Shown piece after piece: positions 23,791 through 64,000 of a stretch of 64,000 nt of DNA (the stretch's first letter is position 1; every line of letters starts with the position of its first letter). A program made the position numbers and the translations under genes. The stretch lies in contig CAUYUJ010000092.1 in NCBI GenBank assembly GCA_963575745.1, positions 186,001-250,000 of the forward strand, given 5' to 3'. The notes under the pieces were generated by a model that ran no database searches, was not told the DNA's origin, and was given only the letters and a program-made list of their open reading frames with translations. The stretch comes from Prorocentrum cordatum. Its lineage: Eukaryota.

Positions 23791-24944
23791 AAGGCAGCTC
23801 GGAGCTCAGGCGGAAGCGCGGACGACGTCTTTGCACGCTTCGCAGAGATAGACCGCAAGCTCGACGTCGCCGTGAGCAAGCTGGAGGTAGTCTGACATCC
23901 AACTCAGGGTGTCAGTGTGGCTGTCCCGCCGTCTCCTTCCCACGGAAGCTTCGAGGGGGCCGAGGAGGACGTTGCAGCCCGCCGGCGTGCAACCGCCAGA
24001 GATGTTCCAGACGTTCTGCTTCTAAAATTGCGCCCAAATGATGAGTTCGCCTCCAAGTCGGCCGGGAGGCTTGTCAGAAGCTCCGCGGGGACCCCAGGAG
24101 GATACCCAAGACGTCCTTTTGACGGGAAAACCATTGGTGCCCCATGAGGCGTGTTGAAGATGTCGGTGTGTTTCTTCTTTTGGAGCGAAGGGCGTCTGCG
24201 ACAGCCCACGAGGCTTCCAGAATCGACTCGCGTGGCTTTCTGGCGGACCCGAGAAACCCAAAGAGGGCCCCAATACGCTTCCAAGACGGAACGAAGAGAC
24301 CCAAAGCGCATCCAAGAAGGGAAGGATATCCCCAAGAGGCTTACATGAAGCCCCGAGAAAGACGCGCCAGAGGATGCAGGTCGCATTGCAGATCACAATG
24401 GTTGGGTGATTTTTGAGTTCCAGCTTTTCCCGCCTTAAGAGAGGAGCGACAACACAAGGGGCTATCAGGATCGCCTCAAGGTGGCTCAAATGGGCCCCGC
24501 GAGGCTTTCCGGCGGGCCCAAGCAATCGCCCCAAAAGCCCAACAGCATGCCATGAGGGCCCCAAGGCGGCCCCGAGAATGCCTTCGAGGGGTCCAAAGTC
24601 ATGCCAGCGAGCCTCTTCATGTGAGCCCGCGGCATATGCACGGGGAGCCCCACGGAGGGCCCCTATAGGAGGCTCCGAGGCGCCCCCCCCCAGAGTTGAA
24701 ACAGCGTTCCAGAGTGGACCAGATGGCGCCTGTGCTGCCCGGGGATTGTCTGGTAGTAAATGCCCAGCGACAGTAAAAAAACACGATGGCAAATGCCGTG
24801 CCATCCGAAACGCAGCACGACATGCAAATCGAAGTACCTTGCGCCATTCCGCCGCCCCCCCCAGAAGGAGCGAGAGCTTGCGACGTTCTTGGAAGTTATC
24901 CAGTGGGTCACGAGCAGCTTGGATACACATAATGAGGCTCGCAG

Positions 24945-46438: not shown

Positions 46439-46670
46439 CTAGGGTAGGCCTAGGGTAGACCTAGGGTAGGCCTAGGGGTAGGCCCTAGGGGTAGGCCTAG
46501 GGGTAGGCCTAGGGGTAGGCTCTAAGGGTAGGCTCTAAGGGTAGGCCTAGGGTAGGCCTAGGGATGGGCCTAGGCGTGTAGGCCTAGGCCCATCCCTAGG
46601 CTTACACGCCTAGGCCTACCCATTCCTTTTCTTGTCTCGCCATCCCTAGGCCTACACGCCTAGGCCTAGG
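46439..46670. repeat. CCTAGG/TAGGGTAGGCC satellite (inverted counterpart at 48885-49184)
   Basis: Direct reading. Confidence 0.9.
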
Positions 46671-46910
46671 TACGTCCTCGAGTAAGTTCTTGTTTCGCCT
46701 GAGACATCCTCGAACGAATCTCTCGTTTCGCTTGAGACATCCTCGGCAAATCTCTCATCTCGCTGGAGACATCCTCGAGCAATTGCCTGTTTCGCTTGAC
46801 ACATCCTCGAAAAACATATCTCGTTTCGCTTGAGACAGCTTCGACAACTCTCTCGCTTTGCTTGAGACGCCCTCGAGTATATGCTTGTTTCGCTTGAGAC
46901 ATCCTCGAGG
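46670..46910. repeat. 32-bp repeat array (~7-8 units)
   Basis: Same core motif. Confidence 0.92.
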
Positions 46911-47022
46911 GTTCTCTTGGGGTTCTCTTGAATTCATCGAGTGGGAGCCTCGATACTGGGCCGCTCGACATTTTTCTTCGCGTCCAGCCTCGGTTAGCTC
47001 GCAAGAGTAGCGCCTCGGCCAT

Positions 47023-47373
47023 CTAGAGTGGCTCACTCGAATCAACCCTGGGTTCTCTCGACTGAAGCTCGTCGTCCTGGAACTGCGTGGGCTCGCCTGG
47101 CTGGAGCTGCTCGGCTGTCTTGCCGCGCACGAGAGAGGCCCTCCACTTGTTCTCTTGGGTGGGGTCGAGCTCGGTCTCGACCTCCGTCTCGGTCTCCGCC
47201 CTCTGCTGCTTGACGTCGGTCTTGACCGCAGTCTCGATCTTGAGCTCCGTCTCGATCTTCACGGTTGTCGGCTTGGACTTCCTCGAGTTCTGCGTTGTTT
47301 TTTTCGCGACAGAAGGCTTGGGCTCCCTCGGCGCCTGCGCTGGCTTCTTGGAGACAGTCGCCCGCTTGGCCAT
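47023..47373 (-). CDS. Accessory gene 3: 116-aa protein with a basic N-terminus and tandem psi-K-x-E/D motifs
   Basis: ATG 47373 (MAKRATVSKKPA) follows an SL-like motif; the protein contains VKIE, LKIE and VKTD. Confidence 0.6.
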   Translation of the reverse strand: MAKRATVSKKPAQAPREPKPSVAKKTTQNSRKSKPTTVKIETELKIETAVKTDVKQQRAETETEVETELDPTQENKWRASLVRGKTAEQLQPGEPTQFQDDELQSREPRVDSSEPL

Positions 47374-47425
47374 GTCGCCTGCAGCGCGCCCGCTCCAGGT
47401 GCGTTCCTCGCTCGTGCTCGAAATC

Positions 47426-47448
47426 CTTGAGCCAGAGTGAACTACTGG
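47426..47448 (-). promoter_or_regulatory. Degenerate SL-like motif
   Basis: The minus strand reads CCAGTAGTTCACTCTGGCTCAAG then GATTTCGAG, 52 nt before the ATG. Confidence 0.6.
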
Positions 47449-47449
47449 A

Positions 47450-47820
47450 AGAGACATCCTCGAAAGCACTCTCGCTTCGCTTGAGACATCCTCGACGAAT
47501 CACTTCTCTCTCTCTTGCCAGATCTTCGAAATTATGTGTTACTTCGCTTGAGAGATCCTCGGCACATAGCTTGTTTCGCTTGAGACGTCCTCGACATACT
47601 TGTTTGTTCCGCTTGAGACTCCTCAGGCAATTGATGCGTTTGCTTGAAACATCCTTGAAATAATTTGATGTTTCGCTTGGGACATCCTCAAACAATTGCT
47701 TGTATCGTTTGAAACGTCCTCGCATGCGTGCTCGTTTTGCTTGAAATATCATCGAACAAATGTTTATTCCGATTGAGACATCCTCTGCAACTCTGTCGCT
47801 TCGCTTGAAACGCCCTCGAG
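47450..47820. repeat. 32-bp repeat array (~11 units) upstream of gene 3
   Basis: Same core motif. Confidence 0.92.
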
Positions 47821-47883
47821 CCATTTTCGACGCACGATAGGGAAATCTTCCTTGTTTGCTCGAAGCACTCCGAGCGCACGCAT

Positions 47884-48670
47884 CTAACTCGAGCGCCCTT
47901 CGAGTATCCACTGGCTGTGCGTGCGCTCGTAGGGCGCCCTGGCTTGCGCCTCGGCGTCTGAGGCTGGCTCGGTCGCCCCAGCGTCGGGGCCCGAGAACAC
48001 TGCGTAAACCTCGGGTTCCTCTACTAGGCGCTTGCCCTCCTCGGGCACGAGCTCCTGGCGCTCGGCGCCCTCGTCGTCAAGCTCGTCGGTATCGCTCTCG
48101 GGCTGCTCTGGTGTTTCGGGCTCTCGAGACCTCGGGCTCCCGACCTCGTCCTCGGACTCCGCGGGCGTCTCGAATTCGTCTCGGTCTCGTCATCGCTTCT
48201 TCTCGCCGCTGCTGATGACGGCCTGGGGCTCCTTCTCGCGGGCCTCGATTTCCTCGGGCGTCTCGGGTTCCTCGAGCTCTTGGCGCTTGGTGCCCTCGTC
48301 GTCAAGCTCGTCGGTCTCGCCCTCGGGCTTCTGGTGTCTCGGGCTCTCGAGACCTCGGGCTCTCGGCCTCGTTGTTCGGGAGCTGGGCGTTCTCCTCGAG
48401 CGCCTCCTGCTCCTCGAGACACTGCGCGTTCTCGGGCGGTCCTGTGAGCCCGAGCTCTTGCCGCATTGCCTCGAACATGTCTTGGGCGTTCCCGAACGTC
48501 GCGAGGCTCTCCTCGGAGAAGATGTCTCGCCAATCGCTCGGGAGACGAGCAGCCATGTCCTCGGGAAAGATGCCTCGCCAACGGCTGCGGGGGCGGTCAG
48601 CCATTGATCTCGGCGATGTCGATCGAGACCCTTGCCTCTGAGATTGCCCGAACTCGATGCGCTGTTCCAT
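47884..48670 (-). pseudogene. Accessory gene 2: acidic protein with an internal repeat; one frameshift (~48330) and one internal stop (48190-48192)
   Basis: ORF 48302..48670 continues into the frame of 48190..48834 and through TGA to the stop at 47884. SPRSREPETPE.PE..TDELDDEG..RQEL occurs twice. Confidence 0.6.
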
Positions 48671-48707
48671 TGTCGCCTTGGAGCAAATATCTTGGATAGC
48701 TCGAAAT

Positions 48708-48729
48708 CTTGAGCCACCAAATGGCTACG
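48708..48729 (-). promoter_or_regulatory. Genome-encoded SL-like motif (same GG-insertion variant as 38769)
   Basis: The minus strand reads CGTAGCCATTTGGTGGCTCAAG then ATTTCGAG, 37 nt before ATG 48670. About three 32-bp repeats lie immediately upstream (48745-48830). Confidence 0.85.
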
Positions 48730-48884
48730 TATATTTCTGCTGCTCGTTTCGCTTGAGACGTCTTCGAAGAACGTGTTTGTTTCGTTTGGATGGTCCTCGA
48801 CGAGCGTGCTCGTTTCGCTCGAAGCCTCCTCCAACCTTTACTAGTATCGCTGGAGGGGCCCTTTGAGGCCTTTCCCATGCTACC

Positions 48885-49184
48885 ATAGGGCCTACCTCTA
48901 GGCCCGCCCTAGGCCCACCCCTAGGGCCTACCCCTGGGGCTACCCCAGGCCTACCCCTAGGGCGTGCCCCTAGGCCTACCTTAGAGGGCATGCCTCTAGA
49001 GCCTACCCCTAGGGCCTACCCCCACGCCTACCCCTAGAGCCTAAAATTAGGCCTACACCCCATAGGTCTACCCCTAAGCCTACCTCTAGGCCTACCCCTA
49101 GAGCCTTCCCCTAGGCCTACCCTAGGCCTACCCCTAGGGTATCCCTAGGCCTACCCTAGGCCTGCCCATAGGGCCTTCAGTAGG
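48885..49184. repeat. GGCCTACCCCTA satellite (reverse complement of the 46439-46670 motif)
   Basis: Direct reading. Confidence 0.9.
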
Positions 49185-49743
49185 GCGCCAGGGGTGAGGA
49201 GAATAAATGTTGATAGTTAAATAGACAGATAGGAAGAGAAGAAGAGGAAGAGGAGGCAGGGGAGGAAGAGGAGGAAGAGGATAAGGAGGAGGAGAAAGAG
49301 CAAGAGGAGGAAAAAGAGAAGCAAAACACCAAAGTTCAAAACGCATTAGATTTAAATTACAAGCGCTTAATGAAAATTGCAAGTTTAGCTCATGTGCTTA
49401 GTTTTCCCCGGGTAATCAACCCCTGCGATAAACAAGTTCAGGGTGGCAGGGAGACAAGAAGAAAAAGAAATAGAAAGAGAGAGAGAGAGATACATAAATA
49501 AGACACGAAAGAACCGAAGGATGAGAAGGAGGAAGAGCAGGGGAAGCAGAGGAAGAAGAATATGCAAAAATCCAAAGTTCAAAACTTATTAGATTTAATT
49601 TGTAAGCGCTTAATGGAAATTAAAATGTTCATCTGCTCGCGTAGGGTAGCTCATGCGCTTAGTTTTCCCAGGATAATCAACCCCAGCGATAAACAAGTTC
49701 AGGGCGCCAGGGGGAGGAGGAGAAAGAATGAGAGAGAGATAGG

Positions 49744-49785
<42 letters not shown>

Positions 49786-49989
49786 TATATATAGAGAGAG
49801 AGAGAGAGACAGAGAGAAAGAGAGAGAGAGACAGAGAAAGAGAGAGAGAGAGAGAAAGCAATAACAAAAAAAAAAGAGAAAGAGAAAGAGAAAGAGAGAG
49901 AGAGAGAGAGACAGGACGAGGGAGGAGGGAGGAGGAGGGAGGAGGAGCAGGAGGAGGAGGCCCATGACAGGATTCCTTAAGCACTGCTT

Positions 49990-50409
49990 GTTTCGCTTGA
50001 GACGTCCTTGCGAATTTGGTTGCTTCGCTTCAGGCATCCTTGAAAACATGCTTGCTTCACTTGAGACATCCTTGGACAAACGCTTGATTCGCTTGAGGCA
50101 TCTCGAAAGAATGCTTGGGGTCCTCTTGGGGCCCTTCTCGGGTATTCCCTTGGCGTGTCCTTGGTCGAGGGTCCAAGCTCGAGGCTCCAGGCCCGAGATC
50201 TCAGCTCGAAGCCCAGTGGGCCTCGAGAGCGTCGAGGTTCGAGGCTTGCCTCGACGCTCGTCGCCGCCACCGGAGGGAGGAGAGGCGGCGACGGCACCGG
50301 CGACGGCAGATGCGACGACGGCGACGACGACGACGACGACGGCGGCAGCGACGACGGCGTCGTCGTCGTCGTCGCCGTCGCCGCCGCCACCGCCTTCATC
50401 CTGCCTCCG

Positions 50410-50449
<40 letters not shown>

Positions 50450-50740
50450 CCTCCTCCTCTTCCTCCTCCTCCTCCTCCTCCGCCTCCTGCTCCTCCTGCT
50501 GCCCCCCTCCCTCCCCTCCCTCTCCCCCCCCATCTCCCCTCTCACATCCCCGAGCAATTTCTTGTTTCGCTTGAGGCGTCCTCGAGCAAATCTCTCGTTT
50601 CGCTTGAGACATCCTCGACAAATCTCTCGCTTTGCTTGAGACATCCTCGAGTATTCGCTTGTTTCGCTTGAGACGCCCTCGACGAGCCTCTCGCTTCGCT
50701 TGCGACATCCTCGAGCAATTCTTTGTTTCGCTTGAGACTC
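49990..50740. repeat. 32-bp repeat arrays (~4 and ~6 units) separated by microsatellites
   Basis: Same core motif. The start acaggattcct.aagcactgcttgtttcgcttgagac is duplicated at ~43148. Confidence 0.88.
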
Positions 50741-50769
50741 CCTCTCCTCCCTCCCCCCTCCGTCCTCGG

Positions 50770-51067
50770 TCGACCCTCGGGTCGAGAGTCCAAGGTTCTC
50801 GGGCCAGGGATCCGAGATCTCGTGATCTCGGATCAACGATGGCCCGAGGCTCTCGGAGCCTCGATCCGAAGATCGATCGAGGATCGAGCCTCGCCGAAGG
50901 GATCTAAGACGAGATGACCTTGAGACAGGGGCTCGATCCTCGATCGACCCTCGGATCGAGAGCCCAAGGTTCTCGGGCCAGGGATCCGAGATTTTGTGAT
51001 CTCGGACCAACGATGGCCCGAGGCTCTCGGAGCCTCGATCCGAAGATCGATCGAGGATCGAGCCTCG
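50770..51067. repeat. TCGA/GATC-rich duplication with 174-bp period, 3' of gene 1
   Basis: tcgaccctcgg...gatcgagcctcg starts at 50770 and 50944. Confidence 0.85.
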
Positions 51068-51211
51068 ACGGAGTTGCGCTCGGTGTTACGCTCGAGAAGG
51101 GGCTGGCGAAGCCTCTCGGGAAACCTCTCGGAAAGCTCGAGGGAACGGGCCTTGATCGCCACTCGCTCCTCGATGAGGCCTCGATGAAACCTCGCGCTGG
51201 GCCTGCTCGGC

Positions 51212-52279
51212 TCAAACCTCCATCTCGATCTTCTCGAACTCCTGCTTGCTCGTCTTCTCGACCTTCATCTCCTCGTACTCATTGTTGGTCTTCGCGTAGC
51301 TCGGGAAGCTAGTCTTGATGAACACATCGAAGAGCATATTCTGATGCTCGAGCTTCTTCTTCTCCTCGATGTCCTCGTCGCGCTTGAGGCGCTTGGCGGC
51401 GGTGTACTTGTGCACGTCGAGCTCGAAAGCCTTCTTGGCCACCTTGCTGACTTGCCAGCGCCGCGCCACGATGGCGCTCGTGGCGCAGATGCGCTCGCTT
51501 GCGTCACCCTCGAGGCAAAACCGCTTGAACTCGTCGAAGTAGTCCTTGGCCTTCTTGGGCATGATTGCTACCGACTCGAACTGCTCCTTGCCCTTCTTGG
51601 CGCTGGCCCTCGGCAAGACAGACTTGAATTGCTTGTTCACTGGAAGCATCACCACGTACAGCGCTTGCAGATCTTGGGGGGTCTCGCCGAGGACCTGCTT
51701 GACGACCTTGGTCGCGGCTCTCTCGGGCATCATCTCGGCCTTGTCGCCGAGGAGCGCGTCGTGCGTTTTGGCCTCGTCGAGCAACTCCGCTCGGAAGCTC
51801 GGCAGCATCCTGAACAACTTCTCGACGTTCGTGTCCTGGTCGTCGAAGCCGTCGAACATCTCGGTGCTCCCCTCGATGTGCGTCTTGTAAAAGATCGCAC
51901 AGAGCAGCTCGCCGCGCCGCTTGTCCTTGCCGTGGAAGATGCCCTCGTACTGGATGCCCTCGAGGCTCCCCGTCTTGAGGGCGCTCGCGAGGGCGGCGTT
52001 CTTGCTGTTCTTGTGCCACAGCGCGGAGCCGCCCCGGCAGTAAAAGTTCGCCATTCTCGAAGCGTCGGTAGCCTCGCCGCTCGATTGGCACTGCCTCATC
52101 TCGGCGCAGCCTGCCTTCTCGGCGATGTACTCGAGTGTCTTGTTCTGCACCTCGATGGCCTCGTTCTGCTTCTCGAGCAGCTTGGACATCTGCTCCAAAA
52201 CCTGGTTGTTTTGCTTGAGCAGCTCGATGACTTGGCTGTCCTCCGCGAGCTGGGGGCTCGACGCCTTGGGCGACGCCAT
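51212..52279 (-). CDS. Accessory gene 1: intact 355-aa protein of unknown function (N-terminal coiled coil, globular core)
   Basis: ATG 52279 (MASPKASSP) follows an SL-like motif. Heptad-like LLKQNNQVLEQMSKLLEKQNEAIEVQNKTLE and strong GC3 bias. The upstream part of the 540-aa ORF is repeat array. Confidence 0.8.
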   Translation of the reverse strand: MASPKASSPQLAEDSQVIELLKQNNQVLEQMSKLLEKQNEAIEVQNKTLEYIAEKAGCAEMRQCQSSGEATDASRMANFYCRGGSALWHKNSKNAALASALKTGSLEGIQYEGIFHGKDKRRGELLCAIFYKTHIEGSTEMFDGFDDQDTNVEKLFRMLPSFRAELLDEAKTHDALLGDKAEMMPERAATKVVKQVLGETPQDLQALYVVMLPVNKQFKSVLPRASAKKGKEQFESVAIMPKKAKDYFDEFKRFCLEGDASERICATSAIVARRWQVSKVAKKAFELDVHKYTAAKRLKRDEDIEEKKKLEHQNMLFDVFIKTSFPSYAKTNNEYEEMKVEKTSKQEFEKIEMEV

Positions 52280-52338
52280 GGCTCGGGAAGCTGAATCTCG
52301 AAAGCTTCGAAAGCTCGAAAGCTCGAAATCTCGAAGCG

Positions 52339-52359
52339 CTCGAGCCAGAACGGTTGCGG
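52339..52359 (-). promoter_or_regulatory. SL-like motif
   Basis: The minus strand reads CCGCAACCGTTCTGGCTCGAG: 16/21 identical to DinoSL, with all differences transitions. It is followed by tandem TTTCGA(G) copies. Confidence 0.7.
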
Positions 52360-52380
52360 GCGGGAGCAGGAGACTAGCTC

Positions 52381-53035
52381 GTTTCGCTGGATACATCCTC
52401 GAAAACGTGCTCGTTTCGCTTGAAACATCCTCGAACAAATCTCTCGTCTCGCTTGAGACATCTTCGACAAATCTTTCATTTCGCTGGAGACATCCTCGAG
52501 CAATTGCTTGTTTCGCTTGAGACACCCTCGAACAAAATTTGTCGTTTCGCTTGAGACGTCCTCGACAAATTTCTCCTTTCGCGTGACAAATCCTCGAGTA
52601 TATGCTTGTGTCGCTTGAGACATCCTTAAGAAACGTATTGTGTCGCTTGAGACGTCCTTCAGTGTATGCAAGTTTCGCTGGAGACATCCTCGAATGTATG
52701 CCTGTTTCGCTTGAGACATCCTCGACAACGTGCTCGCTTCGCTGGATACATTGTCGAAAACGTGCTCGTTTCGCTGGAGACATCCTCGAACAAATCTCTC
52801 GTTTCGTTTGAAACATCCTCGACAAATCTCTCATTTCGCTTGAGACATCCTCGAGTATATGCTTGTTTCGCTTGAGACATCCTCGACAAGTTATCGCCTC
52901 GTTTGAGACATCCTCAAATATTTGCTGGTTCCGCTTGAGACATCCTTGAAATATTGATCGTTTGGTTTCAGGTTGCCTCCCAAAATTATTGGTTTCGCTT
53001 GAGACATCCTGAAAAAACGTGTTCGCTTCGCTTGA
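52381..53035. repeat. Largest 32-bp repeat array (~20 units), at the right end of the element
   Basis: A 22-bp conserved core plus a 10-11-nt semi-variable linker; period 32-33. Confidence 0.95.
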
Positions 53036-53604
53036 TGTTGTTATCTCAACATGAGAAGGAAGTAACCTCGATGGCGAACTTTTCCCGTGATAATGAAGTT
53101 CGGCCTCCGCGCCCCCGCGCCCCCGACCAAACTCTTATTGGCCGACGATAAAAAACTCTAACTACTTAAGGGGGGATGGACATTATTATCGTGGGCATGC
53201 GGTTATGTTGCCTCCTCAAGGGGCGCTTACTGGCCAAATCTGCAGCAATCGGGTCGAGGGGGCCGAGGAGGACACATTATAGAACCCGGCACGTTTGGCA
53301 ACCAGCCCATCCACGAAGACGAAATGTCAATCAGGAATTTGATCGTAGAGTCGTGTTTCGTCATTCGCCTGCCGTTGCTCGGACGCGGCGGCTAATTACG
53401 AGCATGAGGACGACGACGAGGACGAGGACGGCAACGACGACGACGACGTCGTTTGGGCGCCGCAGCGGCGAGGGCGAGGGCGAGGACGAGGACGGCGACG
53501 AAGACGACGACGAATGGCGTCGACGACGACGTTGACAAGGACGACCAGGACGAGGACGGCGACGACGACTGTGAAGACGATGACGATTCGAGGAACAAGC
53601 AACG

Positions 53605-53768
53605 GCATAAACACAAATGTTTGAAGCTGCGCTGATTTCTTGGATCGGTGCCGGACCCCCCTTCCCTGGCGTGTGGAGCGCGCCAGGGGCGGCGCCAGAG
53701 GCGCCACTAGGGTGCTCCAGCGCCAATCTGAGAAATCCGCGCGGACCTCCGAAAATGTCATGCTTATG
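53605..53768. mobile_element. Palindromic MITE-like element, copy 3 (core inverted relative to copies 1-2)
   Basis: gatttcttggatc...gaaatccgcgcggacctccga arms, with core tggagcgcgccaggggcggcgcc. Confidence 0.65.
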
Positions 53769-55301
53769 AAGTTGTTTGTTCCCCGAGTCATTCCATTTTG
53801 GTCGCAAGCACGCTTATGGAGACCATTGCCGAGGACCAGGCCTCAAGACGTCATGAGGGCGTGTGCAGGAATGGTTTCAGCATGTTGGGTAAGCTTCTGT
53901 ACGACAGCGGCACGTTGGACATGCTTCGGCTATGCGTGCAGAGCGCGCATCTTCTAGTGACCAGCTGGCCTGGTATCTGGAAAGGCACGCAACGCAAAGT
54001 CTCTCCGCGCCTGGAAAGATAGCTGAAAGGCAAATGTAGAGGGTAATAAGGGGGGGCGAGATTTCTCTTGGTGATTGCTGTGCCCGTCCGATCACGCTCG
54101 GAAGTGGCAGGGGGTGCTAGATCACTTTCTTCTCGCGGCGGGAACCGCAGAATCTCCCGGGAGTTTGCGAAAAGATAGATCGAAGCCCTCCTTGAGACAG
54201 GTGCGCGCCACGGCGGTCGGGCGCGACGCCGCCAGGGGCCGCCTCGCTGGAGCCTACTCGGCAACCGTGCTGGAGCGGCTGGGCATCGCAGGGCCGCGCA
54301 GGCCGAAGACTCCTCCACCTCCTCCTCCTCCTCCTCCTCCTCCTCCTCCTCCTCCTCCTCCTCCTCCTCCCTCCTCCTCCTCCTCCTCCTCCTCCTCCTC
54401 CTCCTCCTCCTCCTCCTCCTCCTCCTCCCTCCCTCCCTGGGGCGCCCGCCCCCCCAGCCCCCGCCGCACGCGACGGGCGACGTCGGCGGTGGGGGGGGGC
54501 CCCTTCCACGGCGGGTCCGATGCGGGGGTTCCTCCATGACCACCGCCTGGGGGATCGATCTTCGGGGGCCTCGGCTGGCGGAGGGTGCGATCGCATTCGA
54601 GCTCTGGGAGGGCCAAGTATATCCACATCCACCGCCCGCCCGGGAGGTCCACGAAGATCGATCCCCCGCCAGAGGGTATGGAGAAGTCCCCGCCTCGCAG
54701 CCAAGCACCCTAGCGAGGGCGAGCGGGTGTGTCAGAGCCCCGAATCATCAGGAGTAACTCGGGTCAGGGCTAGCGGGCGATTTGGGGGGCAGGAAAATTT
54801 TGGGGCTGGCCTTATTCGTGGCCTCTGGGCTTCCTGGCCTTCGGGCTTCCATGCGTCCCGCGGCCTGGCTACCCCAGGAGGGGTGCGGCGGAGTGCGTTC
54901 GCCCTCTCAGCCTTTGGCCGCTTAGCGGTGGCGGATTTCGGCGTGGGGCTGCCACGCTGTCTGCTCTCCTTCCTCCTTCTTTCTGCTGTCTGGTGAGGTT
55001 GGCTGATTGGATTCCGTCGCGTGGCGGCCCCTGGGCACGCCACTGGCCGCGCGCGGCCATTGCCACAGCGAGCGCGGAGGCATTTGCGGGGGTTACGCGC
55101 ATGCCCCGCTGGGCTCGCTGTGCAGCTTGCGGGCCCTGCAGTATGGTGACGCCACCAGTCTGTGCCGATCTGGATGCATTGGGCCCTGGAGGAGTTCCAG
55201 TTCGGGCCAGCCTGGCGGTGCCGGTTCTTTTTCGCATGCCCACAGTTGGTGCGAGAGCGCCGCCCTACTCTGGCATGTTGGTACAGCCCAACAATATTTT
55301 C

Positions 55302-56216
55302 ATGATTCATAAACTCGTTTATGCTGCAGGAAAACTATGAGGAGCAGCCCCACGTGTGTTCGCCTCCACTCCTCAGTTCCTGCACGCTCAATGCCTGCGC
55401 AGCGGGCTGCGGTGTCGGCGGCCGGCGCTTTTCTGCGCGAAGCGGCGGAAGTATGCCCACCTTGCTCTGTTCGTGTGTATTCTGGTGCGGTCTCGCATGG
55501 CGGTTCGCCCGCGGTGCTGGGGTCTCGTCTGCTGGGCCGATCGTGTCTCGCAGTTCTTCTGTTGCTGCTCCCCCGCGCTGGCTCCTTGAAGCCAAATCGA
55601 GAACGCTCCCTGATAGGAGCAGCGGCGAAAAACTCGCTGACAGGGGCTGCACAAACAAGACAGGCTCCCTGATAGGAGCGGCGCCTCCGAAGCCCCCTGA
55701 AAGGAGCTGCGCCTGCGTGCTCCCTGATAGGAGCTAGCGGTGCCTAGCGCTCCCTGAAAGGAGCTGCGCCTGCGTGCTCCCCGACAGGAGCGGCGCCCTA
55801 AAGCTCGTTTTTTGCGTGTTCCCTGACAGGAGCAGCGGCCGAAAACTCCTTGACGGGAGCGGCGCCCCAAAGCTCCCTGATAGGAGCGGCGCTTCAAAGC
55901 TCCCTGACAGGAGCGGCCCCCCAGAACAGAAATTCGCCGAAGGGGGCGGCGCCCAATGCTCCCTGAAAGGAGCTGCGCCTGTGTGCTCCTCGACAGGAGC
56001 GCTGCCCCCCAGAGCTCCTTCCTGTGCTCCCTGACAGGAGCAGCACCCCCAAGCTCCCTGAAAGGAGCTGCGCCTGTGTGCTCCCAGACAGGAGCGGCGC
56101 CCCCGAAACTCTCTAGCAGGAGTCGCGCCTGTGTGCATCCTGGGGCGGCTCCGTGGCGCTGCGCCAGCGCGCTCCCCAGTGACAGCTTGGCGCCTGTCTG
56201 CCAGCTTTCTGTCCGC
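55302..56216 (+). repeat. Split direct repeat A1
   Basis: Begins atgattcataaactcgtttatgctgc, as at 59035 and 63605. Contains a GCTCCCTGA(C/T/A)AGGAGC array. Confidence 0.92.
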
Positions 56217-57275
56217 GTGGAAGATGGACGGCAGTTTGTGGCATCTGGGCCTTGCGAATGTTGTGCTCTGCCCAATTGCGGTTTTCGGGGTCGGATGTGT
56301 GGAGGCGGCAGAAGCTAGTCCTTGATGGGGGGGCATTGGCTAACCCCCCACCTGCACACAACGGGGGCGGGCGTGTTTGCCCGCCCCCGACCGACGCCGA
56401 GACCCTGCGTCCAATGGCGCACGTGGTCTGAAGTCCATGCTGACGCCTTTTCACGAGCGTACTCAGAATTCAATTCTGGTGCGGCTCGTGGAAATCTGGC
56501 CCAGGAGGCTAAACATTGATGCGGATTCCGGCGGGTTTTTTTTTACCGATTTCGGATTTCGCAAGTCGGCCGTCCAGGTCGGATGATTTCTCAAGGCTGG
56601 CTCTAATCAGCTATTCTGCTGAGCTGCAGTCCACCGCCGAGGGCTGCAAGTAGCGGGGAACGTGCGTAAGCCTTCCCGCGAACCGCCCAGGAGGACAGCA
56701 TCGCCTAAAACGGGCGCTCTACCATCCATTATTCAGTCCCCCTCCATCTCCTCTGGTTGGCTCGACGGCGAATGTGCGGGCGCAGCTGCGGGCGTGAACT
56801 GGAATAGATAAAGATTTCAGACAGGGTCGTAGCAGACGCCGCGTGCCCGCGGATTGATGTGGACACTGCCGCCGCATATGCAAACACTGAGCGGAGATGC
56901 TCAGTTCGGCGGTGGGGTGTCCCTGTTGTCTGTACGGCCGCGCCCCTATGACGCCCTCTGCTGGCCTGGATGGCGCATTCAGGTCGCAGAGGGGGATAGG
57001 GGGCGGAAGGGTTCTTCTGCTCTTTCCATAAACAGCAACTCGCCTCCAGCGCCCGTCACGTGTCGTGCGCCGCCGGCGCGCAGCCATTTCTGGCAAGTGC
57101 TTTCACATGAAGGTATTCAGTCGGAGGGACTGGCCATTGCTGGAGAGTTTGGTCATGATGCTATCTGTCGCCTTCTAGGCTCCAGTGAACCACTATTGCT
57201 GGGATTGAAATCCTTCGGCGCATTGCAGCGTGCTCTTCAATTGTACGTTGCAACATCAACCCTGCCGTGCCCACC

Positions 57276-58598
57276 ATGGCTTTCTCCCCCGGCGACGTCT
57301 CTGCCATGATTGCCACTGCGCCGAGCGGGGCCTTCAACAAGGCCAGCGCTGACCAGATCCGCGACTGGGTCGACTTCGCGCTGAATGTCGAGCCCAGCGC
57401 GGCGGAGAAACACGACCTGTTCTACTACGTGTCGGTGGCCCGCCTCTTGGCGGAAACGATCGGCAGCACCTCGCTCTCGGATTTCGAGGATCCACGCATG
57501 CGCGAGATGATTGAGGCAGCGATTGTTGCGAACGATTTGCCTTGCGCCGCAGAGCAGGATCCAGCATGGAAGGCCTGTCGTCTTCGCACTCAAGGTGCAG
57601 ACCAAGTGCGCCCAAGCTGCACCACCCGCCCGCTCGGCCCCAGAAGCCGGCGCTGGGTCGAGCGACGCGGCAGGAATGGCCGAAGCTGTGAAACAGCTCG
57701 CAGAACTACAGACCCAGGCGCTCCAGAACGGCAAGCCGGAGGGTCTCAGCTTCAAGCTTCAAGACAGGATCGATGAAGTGGGCTTGCAGAATTTCGATAA
57801 AGACACCCTCCCGTCCGAGGAAATCTTGGCGAAGTTCGAGGCCGGAGCCAAGATCGCCAACGACCAGGGCCAGGCTTGGATCGGCTCTGCAGAAGGAGAA
57901 GATCTCCGCGATCATCACCGCCCAGCACGGAGTCGCACCCCTCTCGTCGACGCGGTCGTGGGCGACGGCTCCTACGAGGATCGCGCGAGACAGAGTGCGG
58001 CCGCCAAGCGCGGAAGCGCTTGGATCGATAAGATCGATTACGTGAGCTTCGCGACCTTCATGGGGCATCTCCACGAGTGGGGTTTCAAGGTAATCCTCAC
58101 GAAGGCGTGCAGCATGGCGGACTTTTTCTCCCACGTGCACATTATGATCCGCATCGCTGAGGAGAACGCCGGGGTCAGGACGGCGTTTCAATGCGACGTC
58201 CTCCAGCGGAGGGCCATGGCCAAAGCGCTCGAGAGGGACGAGACCGATTTGAGCAGGTACCTTACAAGGATCGATGTTGATCTCCTGCGCACGGCCAAAG
58301 ACAAGGTGGATAAACGCTTCGCGGAGCTCGCTCGTGCATCTGGCGCGCCCAAGGGTCAGTCCAAGGGCCAGCCCAAGGGCGCCTCCAAGAGCTACGGCGA
58401 CGGGGGCAGCCACGCCTCCAGAGCGCATCCTCCGGCGGCAAGGGCGGCGAGAGCGCTAAGGGCGACAACCGGCGCGTGCGTTCGCCGCCCGCGCGGCACA
58501 AGGGCAGCGCCGGTGGCGGCCAGCAGCATCGGTCGCGCAGCCCACGCGCTGGATGGCAGCAGTCCGGCCAGTGGGACAAGCAGTCCTGGAGCAAGTGA
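57276..58598 (+). pseudogene. ORF1/gag-like protein with two compensating frameshifts (~57545 and ~58420)
   Basis: ccaccATGG start (MAFSPGDVSAMIA). The middle is in the frame of ORF 57511..58782. The KG/RSRSPR-rich tail GGKGGESAKG...WSK* returns to the first frame. Confidence 0.7.
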
Positions 58599-61500
58599 GC
58601 GGTCACGCCGCTCGCTGACACTGCCGACGGTCAGCAGTCGGAGAGCGAGTCAGGGGGCGATGAGCCCTTGGAGCGCTCTTCGGCTCGTCCCAGCGTTGAT
58701 TTTAAGCATTTTAAAGCTGGGCTGTCACATGTCAGTGCGCGTGTACATAGCTTTCTCGCTCGCGATGATTTGCGTCGCCTAGATCCGTGGGATCACTTGG
58801 AGTGGGCGTCGGCCTTGCCTGTTTGCGCAGAAGTTCCTCTTTTGCCGCACTTTTTGGAGAAAGGCTGCGACCGCGTGACAAGATTGACCCCTGCGGAATT
58901 GCATTCGGCTCGTAAATTAGCGCTTGCTTACTGGTCGGAGAGGAAGCGAGTGACGGAACCCTGCTGGCAGCCCGCGTTCGCGCAGCTGCCAGCGCACTGC
59001 CAAGGTGTCTTAGGGCCCCGGAAAAATTTGTTTCATGATTCGCAAACTCGTTTATGCTGCAGGAAAACCATGAGGAGAAGCCACACGTGCGTTCGCCTCC
59101 ACTCCTCAATTCCTTCGCGCTCAATGCCTGCGCAGCGGGCTGCGGCGTCGGCGGCCGGCGGTTTTCTGCGCGAAGCGGCGGAAGCACGCTCACCTTGCTC
59201 CGTTCGTGTGTACTCTGGTGCGGTCTCGCATGGCGTTTCGCCCGCGCTGCTCGGGTCTCGTCTGCTGGGCCGATCGTGTCTCGCAGTTCTTCTGTTGCTG
59301 CTTCCGCGCGCTGGCTCCTTGAAGCCAAATCGAGAACGCTCCCTGATAGGAGCAGCGGCGAAAAACCAGGGGCTGCACGAACAAGACAAGCTCCCTGATA
59401 GGAGCGGCGCCTCCGAAGCTCCCTGAAAGGAGCTGCGCCTGCGTGCTCCCTGATAGGAGCCAGCGGTGCCTAGCGCTCCCTGAAAGGAGCTGCGCCCGCG
59501 CGCTCCCCGACAGGAGCGGCGCCCTAAAGCTCCCTTTTTGCGTGTTCCCTGAAGCAGCGGCCGAAAACTCCTTGACGGGAGCGGCGCCTCAAAGCTCCCT
59601 AATGGGAGCGGCGCTTCAAAGCTCCCTGACAGGAGCGGCCCCCCAGAACAGAAGTTCGCCGAAGGGGGCGGCGCCTAATGCTCCCTGAAAAGGAGCTGCG
59701 CCTGTGCGCTCCTCGACAGGAGCGCTGCCCCCCAGAGCTCCTTCCTGCGCTCCCTGACAGGAGCAGCGCCCCCAAGCTCCCTGAAAGGAGCTGCGCCCGT
59801 GCGCTCCCGGACAGGAGCGGCGCCCCCCAAGCTCTCTAGCAGGAGTCGCGCCTGCGCGCCTCCTGGGGCGGCTCCGTGGCGCTGCGCCAGCGCGCTCCCC
59901 AGCAACAGCCTGGCGGCTGTCTGCCAGCTTTCTGCCCGCCCTCATGCCGCCCCATGGCCCGCGCCGGCGTCCTGCCCTGGCTGGGAGCCCAAGGGGCGGG
60001 TTCCCAGAAGGCCCCTGCCAGCCAGGCAGCGCCGCTCACACGCCCTATGCTGGCGCAAGGACGCCGGCCACTCTACAGTGGGCCTGGCTACCGCAATGGT
60101 TTTCTCCTTAGCGAGATGCTTGAGTCCATCAGCTGGCCAGACGCCACGCTGATTAGCAATTTAATGCACAGTTTTCCTCTTGTCGGCTTGCCCCCAGCGG
60201 GTGGGGCGCGCGCTCCGACAGGGAACGCAGCGCCGGAGGTAACCAAAGCTGCTCTATTGGCCACTGCGAGCGTTCAGAACAGAGACATTTTGCGGCGATC
60301 GTCTTTGCCACTCGGGATGGACAGATCTGCCTGTGAAGTTTTTGCTTCTGCGTGCGACCGGGAGGTCGCGGACGGCAAGGCTAGACGTCCACTGAACATA
60401 GAAATTTGTGTTTTAACGCCGAGATTCCCAATCGTGCAAGGTTGGAAGACCGTAGGCTGGGAAACGTTTCCCAAAGTTAGATGCATCGATGATTTTTCTG
60501 CGTCGCGTATCAATGAAGGCACGCAAGTATCCGAGAATATGCTTCCCGACACGCTAGACTCACTTGTAGCGCTGGTGTTTAAGATCAAGAAATCAAGAAC
60601 AATGCGCATTCGTTGGCGCAAAGATGATTTTGTGCAAGCCTTCAAAACATTACAAATATGCAGCTCTCACCTTCCATTTGCAGTTGTCGTGTGGCCGGAG
60701 GCGTTGGCTAAAGACCAGTGTCTCCAGCTCCTGGCAATGCCCTTTGGCTCTTCCGCCTCCGTGTCCGCCTGGGAGCGGTTCGGTTTGGCAATTCAGGGTG
60801 TGCTTGCGCAGATTTTCCTAGCGCTATACCCTCGCTTTGTCGACGATTTGTTTTCGGGCGACGCGATGGAAGAGCGAATAGATTTTGGCGGAGACCCTCT
60901 GACGGGCCCCGCTGGCACTGCCAAGCTGGCCAGGTACGTAATTTCAGATCTTCTCGGCTGGGATTTGGATGCCGCCAAGGCTGTCACAGAACAGTCATCC
61001 GCCACCATTCTCGGCGTCGGCGTTCGTTTTGATGACGCCCGGCAAGAGATAGTTTTTGACGTGGGTCCGGAGAAGCTCGAGTCGTGGAGCTCCCAAATCG
61101 TCAGGGCCCTCAAGGCGGCCGCGTTGCCGCCGGCAGAAGCGCAGAAGCTGGCCTTGCGTTTGAGTTGGGGTGCCAGCTCAGTTTTTGGCAAGGGGGCGCG
61201 TGCTCCGCTGGCAGCTTTGTTCTTTCATGGCGCAGGCCGCACCAGCCGTCTCACTGCGAGGGCGAGGCTCGCGCTCACATGGTGGCATAAGTTTTTGCAA
61301 TCGCCACCCTCGCGGCGCGTGCCGCTGCAACTCCGCGAGCGCCAGCGGTGCATTTTGCACAGCGACGCAACCGGCACTGGCATGATTGCGCGGGTGCTGC
61401 ACGCTCCTTTCGCCAAAGTCTGGGCCGCCACCAGTGTGCCCGACAGCGCCCGCCAATGGGCACACTGGCGAAAGAACCAGATCGGCACCTGGGAGCCGAT

Positions 61501-61828
61501 GGCAGCGATCTGCGCATTGAAATGGATTCTATATCTTGGCCAAGCAGATCTCGAGATCATCTGCTTCGTCGATAACAAAAGCGCATTGGGTGCGCTTGTG
61601 CGAGGTTGTTCACGGAAGTCCGATTGGAATTGTCTGATTGGCAATATGTGGCTTCTCGTCGCCGACAAGGCACATGTCTTGCATCTTTGGCATGTGCCTT
61701 CGCATTTGAATATCGCAGATGCCCCCGCGCGGCCGCCTGAGAAGGCAGAGCAAATTGCCGAGCTGCAGGCGCGAAATTTTCAACGCGTTGAGTGGCTGTT
61801 TCCGCCGGATGCACCCTGGGGCGGCTGA
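58599..61828 (+). pseudogene. pol: reverse transcriptase plus RNase H, interrupted by a 1070-bp solo repeat (59035-60104)
   Basis: RT motifs KVRCIDDF, KDDFVQAFKTL, AMPFGSSAS and RFVDD. RNase H motifs HSDATG, TWEPMAA, FVDNKSA and VPSHLNIADAPAR. Removing the insert joins KNLF to LLSEML in frame. Confidence 0.9.
59035..60104 (+). mobile_element. Solo A-B repeat unit of the same YR retroelement family
   Basis: A is 59035-59939, then a 42-bp spacer, then B at 59982-60104. TTTC occurs at both junctions (59031-59034 and 60101-60104). Confidence 0.9.
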
Positions 61829-61917
61829 AGCAAAAGTGAAACAATAACATGTGCACAGGTTTTGATTGGAGGAGGGATGCCATGCGTCAGTCTTGCCTTT
61901 TCAGTAGCATCGGCTGA

Positions 61918-63374
61918 ATGCTTAGTTTTGTAAACGTGAGCCGAAGCAAGCGTCTGCGTGCTGAAGGTGCCCCGCCCCGGCAGGCGAGCGATGTGAACTC
62001 GGTTTTCGCTCGCGTGCTGCAGGGCGTGGCTGGCATGAATATGGTTGACATTTCTGGTCTTTGCGAAGCTCTGGAAAACGGCGGCTTCCAGCATTTGTCC
62101 GATTTGGGCGGCTCGGAAGCAAATGAATTGGTAGATCTCGCCCCTGCGTTTTCTGGACAGAACGTTGCGCTCGTCAAAGCCTTCTTGGCGCAGTGTCAGC
62201 GCCGGGCCGACCGGGAGTTAGTGGCCGCGGCGTGCCGACAGGCAACGCGCACCGAGGCTACCTCGCCCTCTTCAGGGGCCGGGGCAGAGGCACAAACCCG
62301 AGTTGCGAGCCAAAGCGATCCACGTGAGGCAGCCAACGACGAGCAAGGTCGTGCTGGCTTGATCTTGCTTGGTGAATCGCGCCGTGCTCGCGTTGTTCCC
62401 GAACCTGCTGTGCTAGCAGCCGCAGCGGCGGCCGCCGCCTGCTGCAATTGCTATCCAGGGGCGGAACCAATTGGCAGGCCCCGTGAAGAAGTCAAACGTG
62501 CACGTCGCGATGTTCCTGGCGGAGATCATCTCCATCTCCACACTCTGTGGATCGAGTTCGCTGCCTGGCGAAAAAGTGCTCCACTATACGCTTCCGCCGT
62601 CCGCTTGTGGGGCGAAGCTGCCAGGGCCATTTCGGCGCGCAGCTGGCCACCGTCCGAATCTGTTCTCAATGCCTTTGTGGGGTTATTCCGTAATTGGAAC
62701 TGTCTCCCTCTCGGTGTTCTCGACGACACAGAAAGGCTGGCCAGAGGTGCCGAGAAAATTACCCGAGACGTATTCAGGAGAGCGAAGATCCGGGCGACGG
62801 CGGAAGAAACCAAACTCATCCGCAAGTGGTGCGCTGAAGCTGGATATCCGCTGTTGGCGGCGTCGTGGGTGATCGCTCGCCAATTCTGTTTGCGTTACTC
62901 TGAGTTGCTGCTCCTCGGGTCAAATGTTGCGACATTCCGCTTCAGCGGCGATGAACGCAAAACCTGTGCCATTCGTTTTGCGCAGCGCAAATGTTCCAAC
63001 GAACCGTGTGAGACAACCAGACGTTGCATTTGTCAGCTGCACGGGCGCTCCTTGTGTGGCGTCTGCGAATTATTCTCTGTAGGAGCAGCAGTGTCGGTCC
63101 CCTTCGCGAGCGCGCAGTATGCCGACGCTCCTGCTGTTCTCAAACTTGCAGCAGCCGCTTTGCAGCTGCGGAGTGCTGCGGCCTGGGGCACGCACGCTTT
63201 CAGGCGAGGCTTTGCAGACGAGGCCAACAAGGAGGGCCCGCAGCTTTGTTTTTCAGTGGTGGTTGGAAGGGCGTGGCGGCTTTCGGTTACGTCAGCGCCC
63301 AAAGTCGCGGTGCTTTGTCGGCGGCCGAATGGCTAGTTGACCACTCCGACTCAAGTGACGGCGAGCAAGCCTGA
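61918..63374 (+). pseudogene. Tyrosine recombinase with a frameshift near 63225
   Basis: Catalytic-type residues LRYSE (R) and THAFRRG (HxxR); then, in the frame of ORF 63024..63374, GGWKG (W) and AFGY (Y). Confidence 0.88.
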
Positions 63375-63481
63375 CTGTGGCATCGTGCGCGTGGGGTTGT
63401 AAAACAAATTGGAACAGGAAGCGGTCCTCGCGATGTACCCCTGTCAGGCGCTGCCGCGCAGTCCGTCGCCTTCTGGCGCAT

Positions 63482-63604
63482 TGGGAGCCCAAGGGGCGGG
63501 TTCCCAGAAGGCTCCTGCCAGCCAGGCAGCGCCGTTCACACGCCCTATGCTGGCGCAAGGACGCCGGCCACTCTACAGTGGGCCTGGCTACCGCAATGGT
63601 TTTC
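63482..63604 (+). repeat. Split direct repeat B1 (123 bp), abutting A2
   Basis: tgggagcccaaggggcggg...ccgcaatggttttc is nearly identical to 59982-60104. Confidence 0.93.
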
Positions 63605-64000
63605 ATGATTCATAAACTCGTTTATGCTGCGGGAAAACCATGAGGAGCAGCCCCACGTGTGTTCGCCTCCATTCCTCAGTTCCTGCGCGCTCAATGCCTG
63701 CGCAGCGGGCTGCGGTGTCGGCGGCCGGCTGTTTTCTGCGCGAAGCGGCGGAAGTGTGCTCACCTTGCTCTGTTCGTGTGTATTCTGGTGCGGTCTCGCA
63801 TGGCGGTTCGCCCGCGCTGCTCGGGTCTCGTCTGCTGGGCCGATCGCGTCTCGCAGTTCTTCTGTTGCTGCTCCCCCGCGCTGGCTCCTTGAAGCCAGAT
63901 CGAGAATGCTCCCTGATAGGAGCAGCGGCTAAAAAACTCGCTGACAGGGGCTGCACAAACAAGACAGGCCCCCTGATCGGAGCGGCGCCTCCGAAGCTCC
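63605..64000 (+). repeat. Split direct repeat A2 (truncated by the window)
   Basis: Matches 55302 onward. Confidence 0.93.

Follow-up and report, generated by a model that had tools for sequence, protein, structure and literature searches.

A candidate solo AB repeat of an Ngaro-like retrotransposon, nested in the reverse transcriptase gene of its own family, and the TTTC it shares with its target

Isolated AB repeats have been described for the Ngaro retrotransposons of Cafeteria burkhardae, where they were ascribed to recombination between the 5' and 3' repeats and likened to solo long terminal repeats (LTRs) (Hackl et al. 2021, PMC8547959). The main text of that study gives these elements the layout A1-[open reading frames (ORFs)]-B1A2B2, with a gag-like ORF, a reverse transcriptase/RNase H (RT/RNase H) ORF and a tyrosine recombinase ORF in that order, and reports their insertion into other mobile elements; we saw no insertion core given there. 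Here we describe an element that shares this layout, this ORF order and the insertion into a mobile element. It lies in a 64,000-nucleotide (nt) stretch of Prorocentrum cordatum DNA (assembly GCA_963575745.1, contig CAUYUJ010000092.1, positions 186,001 to 250,000), hereafter called the window. The predicted RT/RNase H gene (ORF2) of the copy in the window, which we call the outer copy, is interrupted by a 1,070-nt unit of the same repeat family that is probably a solo AB repeat, and TTTC is found at each of its junctions. We favor, with a probability of roughly 0.6, a history in which a full copy integrated into ORF2 and was later reduced to the solo.

Several features set the window element apart from the Cafeteria elements. 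Its recombinase relatives come from dinoflagellates, which are another host lineage; its proteins have diverged beyond what the Pfam models of RT, RNase H and integrase detect; A and B are separated by a 39-nt spacer; and its solo is nested in a copy of its own family, where the empty site allows mapping at the level of single bases. In DIRS1-like elements, integration has been modelled as recombination that leaves the target unduplicated, between a junction of 3 base pairs (bp) and a genomic stretch of the same sequence (Piednoel et al. 2011, PMC3266345; Malicki et al. 2020, PMC7192593), and DIRS-1 often inserts into existing DIRS-1 copies (PMC7192593). The main texts of both studies agree with our locus in that a short sequence flanks the element on both sides after integration, the shared core being the 4-nt TTTC in the window element versus NTT in the DIRS1-like elements as described there. 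DIRS1-like elements are built otherwise, with inverted terminal repeats, an internal complementary region and a methyltransferase domain, whereas the window element has split direct repeats and none of these. Cryptons, which are tyrosine-recombinase DNA transposons, are described without RT and without split direct repeats, unlike the window element, and the 4-6 bp direct repeats at their ends are given as microhomology with the target, not as true duplication (PMC13465315).

LTR elements differ in having a DDE integrase and arbitrary target duplications of 4-6 bp, whereas the window element has a fixed TTTC that is shared with its own joint. In LTR retrotransposons and endogenous retroviruses, a solo LTR is the one repeat unit left after recombination of the terminal repeats. 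The SymbioDIRS of Symbiodiniaceae, credited to de Mendoza and colleagues in 2018, are reportedly dinoflagellate tyrosine-recombinase retrotransposons with a DNA methyltransferase; ORF2 of the window element, in contrast, ends right after RNase H. No base-level core for a dinoflagellate element with split direct repeats was found in open-access main texts.

The insert occupies positions 59035-60104 of the window on the plus strand (1,070 nt, or 3n + 2) and consists of an A part, a spacer and a B part. Its first bases, ATGATTC, coincide with the start of A, and its last, AATGGTTTTC, with the end of B, exact to the base. The resemblance of its A and B parts to A1 and B1 of the outer copy (Table 1) bears out the original prediction that an A-B unit is nested in the RT gene of its own family. 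The spacer has no significant match in the rest of the outer element, where its scores stay below the 95th percentile of shuffles. Judged by this make-up (A followed by B, no ORFs between them, exact element ends and membership in the family of the full copy), the insert is probably a solo AB repeat, the analogue of a solo LTR.

Removal of 59035-60104 restores the ORF2 frame, as had been predicted. The left piece of ORF2 measures 3n + 1 nt and the right piece 3n + 2 nt, which sum to 0 modulo 3, and without the insert the two rejoin in frame through the split codon c/tc, a leucine (L). A search with the downstream piece yielded 18 ORF2 relatives, eight of which span the insertion site; in an alignment with both window pieces, all eight of these homologous proteins (41-94% identical) are continuous across the site, with one residue at the joint. 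At the same place the protein P0001 natively reads KNLFLLSEML, that is, ...GPRKNLFLLSEMLES.... Contigs of four public runs (X1, X2, X3 and X7) were also aligned to positions 54800-64000. No run contained at least half of the window's sampled words, and the uncovered parts are evidence neither way. Exactly 1,070 nt, from 59029 to 60100, are skipped by a 2,770-nt X1 contig and a 1,697-nt X2 contig, which is to say in two of the four runs. This skip is the same as a joint at 59034/60105, because the sequence ahead of the site is T-rich in the copies that show it. P0001 probably derives from the X2 contig, which has the length of the P0001 contig, and its skip can therefore not be counted separately from the protein evidence. 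In X3 and X7 there is no joint with the 1,070-nt skip; one X7 contig begins 8 letters (AAAAATCT) before 60100, and these letters are pol-like.

Positions 59035-60104 are thereby confirmed as an insertion into ORF2, and related copies without the segment exist. On the question, raised along with the original prediction, of whether intact copies also contain the 1070-bp segment, the eight spanning proteins and the X1 and X2 contigs are all without it. This absence also argues against a spliceosomal intron of the RT gene, as does the fact that the segment is made up of the terminal-repeat sequence of the element itself. GT/GC...AG ends arise at none of the five equivalent cuts, the cut chosen by the aligner being GT..GG, and the intron reading, whose probability we regard as negligible, was rejected on that ground.

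The filled site in the window's copy comes from the assembly alone, and its junctions (59034/59035 and 60104/60105) are absent from all run output examined. This absence, together with the wealth of repeats in the region, could be taken to mean that the segment is an assembly artefact, or that ectopic gene conversion or template switching copied the A2-B2 end into the RT gene. A chimera is unlikely, however, to start and end exactly at the start of A and the end of B and to share TTTC with the target on both sides, and the insert is 6-7% diverged from the outer A repeats and hence not their copy. We consider this explanation very unlikely. Over the first 396 nt, the A of the insert is 93.8% identical to A1 and 92.8% to A2, versus 95.7% between A1 and A2 (17 of 395 aligned bases differ). 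Since the A of the insert is farther from A1 and A2 than these are from each other, the insert came from another copy of the family.

TTTC stands at all four junctions: before A1, before the insert, at the end of the insert, and at the end of B1 in the B1/A2 joint (Table 1). The two target sites, AAATTTGTTTC at 59024-59034 and CAATATTTTC at 55292-55301, and the joint AATGGTTTTC/ATGATTC at 63595-63611 were found just as first reported. The frequency of TTTC is 0.004 per window position, and the chance that two independent targets both end in TTTC is about 1.6e-5. TTTC is present once in the joint, once in the uninterrupted site and twice in the filled site, and these counts match conservative recombination between joint and target without target duplication. 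Before TTTC stands a G in the pol target and a T in the joint, and after it a T and an A, respectively; because these neighboring bases differ between the partners, the visible strand switch is confined to TTTC. By a manual count on the junction sequences, the right halves of joint and target match at 2 of 10 positions. The proposal that TTTC is the crossover core and flanks both sides of the insert is supported, TTTC being the only identity of the B/A joint with both targets at the switch point.

The same four bases on both sides of the insert do resemble an ordinary 4-bp target-site duplication from a staggered cut, in which case the TTTC at the B1/A2 joint and in the outer left flank would be coincidental. 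TTTC also precedes A1, however, at an independent insertion, and sits once at the B1/A2 joint, and its frequency per position is the low one just given. In addition, the element is without an integrase or transposase ORF, and its third ORF has a tyrosine-recombinase fold. A target-site duplication is therefore highly improbable.

A preference for an upstream AAT, which had been proposed along with the core, did not stand up. There are just two targets, and the offset of AAT differs between them by one base: the pol target, like the B end, has it at -9 to -7, and the outer target at -8 to -6. The loose pattern AATNNNTTTC has 10 sites in the window versus 5.2 expected, three of them in the element. 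As an extended target it was rejected as unproven; an identical 10-mer at 24126-24135 (minus strand) is without B-like surroundings. No preference wider than TTTC is supported, nor can one be claimed with two sites.

The enzyme that would act at these junctions is the product of ORF3, which is predicted to be a tyrosine recombinase and is frameshifted in the window's copy. Its fold was assessed with a model of P0019, a protein 89% identical to ORF3, using VIA-align over 48,161 chains. Of the 15 top matches (Z 10.7-7.7, residues about 315-486), 14 belong to the catalytic domains of tyrosine recombinases, with Z 10.7-8.3 for the integrases, or of type IB topoisomerases, the recombinases being staphylococcal and lambda integrase, XerA/H, Cre, integron integrase, HP1 and P2. 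In the matched region, the relatives of ORF3 conserve the R of LRYSE, the HxxR of HAFRRG and GGW, and the Y of FGY is present in eight of the nine rows that cover it. A 40%-identical Prorocentrum cordatum protein is labelled 'Tyr recombinase domain-containing' by UniRef, and the nearest named relatives are dinoflagellate proteins. The fold and the conserved catalytic motifs agree with the assignment of the element to the tyrosine-recombinase retroelements in the original prediction. ORF2 is predicted to encode RT and RNase H. In Foldseek comparisons, a model of its protein matched the RT p66 of human immunodeficiency virus 1 and the RT of cauliflower mosaic virus (E 1.6e-5 to 1e-4, probability 0.93-1.0, template modelling score only 0.11-0.19), and 149 matches were obtained at E values of 0.001 or below. 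The FVDD and DAS/NxAD-type motifs are invariant in 11 ORF2 relatives.

The observed insertion, the exact ends, the TTTC identity and the recombinase fold can be joined into a history if a circular donor and a later collapse, both of which we infer, are added. A second, different copy of the family would have inserted into the RT gene of the outer copy after the latter was in place, in the same orientation, through conservative site-specific recombination between a B/A joint (...AATGGTTTTC/ATGATTC...) and the target TTTC. A circular donor would supply the joint and, with one TTTC from each partner, the insert would come to have TTTC on either side although no target sequence is truly duplicated. 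The nested full copy would then collapse to the 1,070-nt A-spacer-B unit by A x A recombination. Homologous recombination could bring this about, or equally the resolution by the recombinase of the left junction (TTTC/A1) with the internal joint (TTTC/A2), with the same product. Collapse by the recombinase is feasible because TTTC/A1 and TTTC/A2 agree in both core and right arm. Solo formation by recombination between repeats is a common fate of retroelements bounded by repeats.

A number of observations weigh against this history or against the identifications on which it draws. Neither a full-length nested copy nor an intermediate turned up, the collapse is posited by analogy, and direct integration of a short unit would give an identical structure. 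The B2 of the outer copy lies outside the window. Target sites number two, and one alone has both sides visible. Well-studied tyrosine recombinases have overlap regions of 6-8 bp, longer than the identity of four bases seen here. As for the proteins, Pfam finds no RT, RNase H or integrase in any ORF, even at E values up to 10, and no relevant family in 10 recombinase relatives; searches of PDB sequences with profiles built from the alignments of RT and recombinase returned nothing relevant. The P0019 recombinase model has a mean predicted local distance difference test (pLDDT) score of 51, and the ORF2 model is confident in its C-terminal half only, the polymerase (RT) half having a pLDDT below 50. 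Because the Pfam and PDB profiles are null and the pLDDT is low, the RT and recombinase identities depend on middling fold matches and on motifs.

The foremost competing route has the 1,070-nt A-spacer-B unit entering the target directly, as a small circle of its own and a non-coding passenger mobilized in trans by the family recombinase. Two B/A-type joints in direct order are present in a full-length circle or an integrated element, and resolution between them would free an A-spacer-B circle with a single B/A joint, which could be placed at any TTTC. The exact element ends on both sides of the unit would fit such a circle. So would the protein P0027, which was found with a spurious ORF across spacer, B and flank as the query, meant to harvest other junctions. 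P0027, from a 1,239-nt metagenome contig, runs from the end of A through the same spacer and B straight into A again, of which it covers the first 12 codons. By this order, the spacer is a regular part of the A-B unit, and there is a B/A joint, closed or in tandem, behind A-spacer-B. The arrangement fits a small circle, head-to-tail tandem full copies and a full-length circle equally, however, and P0027 is the sole protein of its kind among 5.8 billion clusters (word-indexed) and 1.84 billion representatives (exhaustive). No listed joint in the four runs returns from the end of B to the A start of the unit, which is evidence neither way. Recombination between repeats is the usual, established route to a solo, and we regard the integration of a small circle as possible but rather doubtful in comparison with the reduction of a nested full copy.

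A structure at the B/A joint, present only when B abuts A, also speaks for the small circle. ATGGTTTTC, the last 9 bases of B including the TTTC core, has its reverse complement, GAAAACCAT, 29 nt inside A (at 59063 and 55330 in the other A copies), and the two can pair across the B1/A2 joint (Table 1). An inner, perfect 7-bp inverted pair, CATAAAC/GTTTATG at 63611-63626, makes this a two-tier hairpin. The DNA of the joint folds at -10.6 kcal/mol (z -2.8), and 2 of 200 shuffles fold equally well; this result pertains to one family only. No comparable fold forms at the integrated ends, which have B and A separated (z -1.0, +1.3 and -0.1). By analogy with integron attC sites, a folded single-stranded joint, with the TTTC core paired with GAAA in A, might be the substrate of the recombinase. 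Single-stranded complementary DNA is reported for DIRS-1 in the text of PMC7192593 and would fit a folded substrate of this kind. In the speculative reading to which this belongs, A-spacer-B would be, rather than debris, a 1.07-kilobase (kb) non-coding mobile circle that is freed by the family recombinase and reintegrated at TTTC, with the B/A joint as its recombination site. This is unlikely, but if it were true, these retrotransposons would also act as DNA elements that excise and reintegrate.

The repeat family is confined to 55297-64000 in the window, and the outer element runs from 55302 to past the window end. Copies of A, a 915-nt repeat, begin at 55302 (A1), 59035 (the insert) and 63605 (A2). 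There are no inverted pairs of at least 40 nt in 53000-64000, and the repeats are direct. ORF2 stops about 100 nt past the last RNase H motif and ORF3 begins 90 nt later; homologs end at the same place, and there is no space for a methyltransferase domain after RNase H. Because long inverted repeats and space for a methyltransferase are both missing, the element is Ngaro-like rather than DIRS1-like or PAT-like. It is thus Ngaro-like, of the DIRS order, with the arrangement A1-[gag-like, RT/RNase H, tyrosine recombinase]-B1A2 and a predicted B2, for which the order A, spacer, B in both the insert and P0027 gives indirect support.

Table 1. Positions of the parts of the outer element, the insert and their junctions in the window. 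A slash marks the point of junction.
Feature	Position	Strand	Remarks
A1, 5' split direct repeat	55302-56219	+	95.7% identical to A2 over 396 nt; 94.2% to insert A
ORF1, gag-like by position only	57511-58782	+	no Pfam match
ORF2, N-terminal piece (predicted RT/RNase H protein)	58599-59034	+	ends ...GPRKNLF plus first base of split codon
Insert, A part	59035-59942	+	versus A1: 854 matches, 53 mismatches, 12 gaps (94.2% identity)
Insert, spacer (39 nt)	59943-59981	+	between A and B
Insert, B part	59982-60104	+	121/123 identical to B1 (98.4%); second TTTC at 60101-60104
ORF2, remainder	60105-61828	+	RT: IDDFSAS 60485-60505, MPFGSS 60737-60754, FVDD 60836-60847; RNase H: HSDATG 61358-61375, NIADAP 61709-61726
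ORF3, predicted tyrosine recombinase, broken	61918-63374	+	ORF 61918-63336; LRYSE 62890-62904, HAFRRG 63193-63210
B1, internal B copy (123 nt)	63482-63604	+	ends AATGGTTTTC; directly abuts A2
A2	63605-64000	+	cut by window end
Inverted repeat at B1/A2 joint	63596-63641	+	ATGGTTTTC (63596-63604) pairs with GAAAACCAT (63633-63641)
Junction, outer left flank then A1	TTTC 55298-55301	+	...CAACAATATTTTC/ATGATTCATAAA; flank ...CAATATTTTC
Junction, pol target then insert A	TTTC 59031-59034	+	...AAAAATTTGTTTC/ATGATTCGCAAA; target-side copy of core
Junction, insert B then pol	TTTC 60101-60104	+	...GCAATGGTTTTC/TCCTTAGCG
Junction, B1 then A2	TTTC ends B1 at 63604		...GCAATGGTTTTC/ATGATTCATAAA

The outer copy is old and dead, to judge from its damaged reading frames and the differences between A1 and A2. 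ORF1 is shorter than in related contigs at two places, by 20 nt behind 57576 and by 1 nt behind 58421. In comparison with related contigs and proteins, ORF3 has a gap of about 16 codons (about 48-53 nt) near 62700-62706, and a frameshift lies between HAFRRG and GGWKGVAAFGY, which is encoded at 63258-63290 in another frame. An ATG at 59954, within the spacer of the insert, is in frame with the downstream RT/RNase H piece, and the RT frame is open for 88 codons upstream into the insert (59840-60104); since the outer copy is dead, this in-frame ATG is probably due to chance. In the comparison of the window copy with the related contigs of the four runs over 54800-64000, C>T and G>A changes dominate, with 81 and 58, respectively, of the 360 listed changes in X1. 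Such an excess would be expected if cytosines in repeats are methylated and deaminate.

A 16-nt palindrome, GCTCC-N6-GGAGC, recurs 11 times in each full A, mostly at a spacing of 27 nt (55605-56068 and 59338-59791), and Tandem Repeats Finder gives the array a period of 27 or 54. A looser version of the palindrome pattern occurs 14-15 times per kb in A versus 0.07 times per kb in positions 1-55000 of the window. A metagenome relative that is 38% identical (L004:1-471) also opens with an array of palindromic 53-nt units. The palindromes of A may serve the 5' region as promoter repeats or as sites for protein binding. Outside the element, a long (CTC)n microsatellite lies 0.8 kb upstream (54292-54470). 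A minus-strand open frame of 640 codons (51212-53134) without a Pfam match consists, in its N-terminal half, of repeats with a period of about 32 nt in which a ...EDVSSE... peptide recurs, and related repeat blocks are found at 46.7, 47.6 and 50.0-50.7 kb (region 46650-53010).

An exact scan for the start of A (20 specified bases) returned 0 loci in metagenome contigs and 0 in genome contigs. Protein-guided scans yielded no loci in viral contigs or genome contigs and seven distant loci in metagenome contigs (L001-L007, 25-41% identical). The six examined, which were all but L006, have no split repeats or recognizable ends.

Solo AB repeats and a short identity of junction and target have already been published for elements of this kind, as the texts of PMC8547959 and PMC3266345 record. 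The event described here is an ordinary one for a known kind of element, cleanly resolved, and it leaves knowledge of how such elements work unchanged. The 4-nt core is a small new datum resting on two sites. The integration of retrotransposons with split direct repeats has been inferred almost wholly from sequence, and the filled site with its matching empty site pins the strand switch to four bases. The B/A joint and a TTTC target form a concrete pair of substrates for a recombination assay. For the annotation of dinoflagellate-type genomes, the finding means that 1-kb A-B units are retrotransposon solos, that such elements interrupt each other, and that their enzymes escape standard Pfam models.

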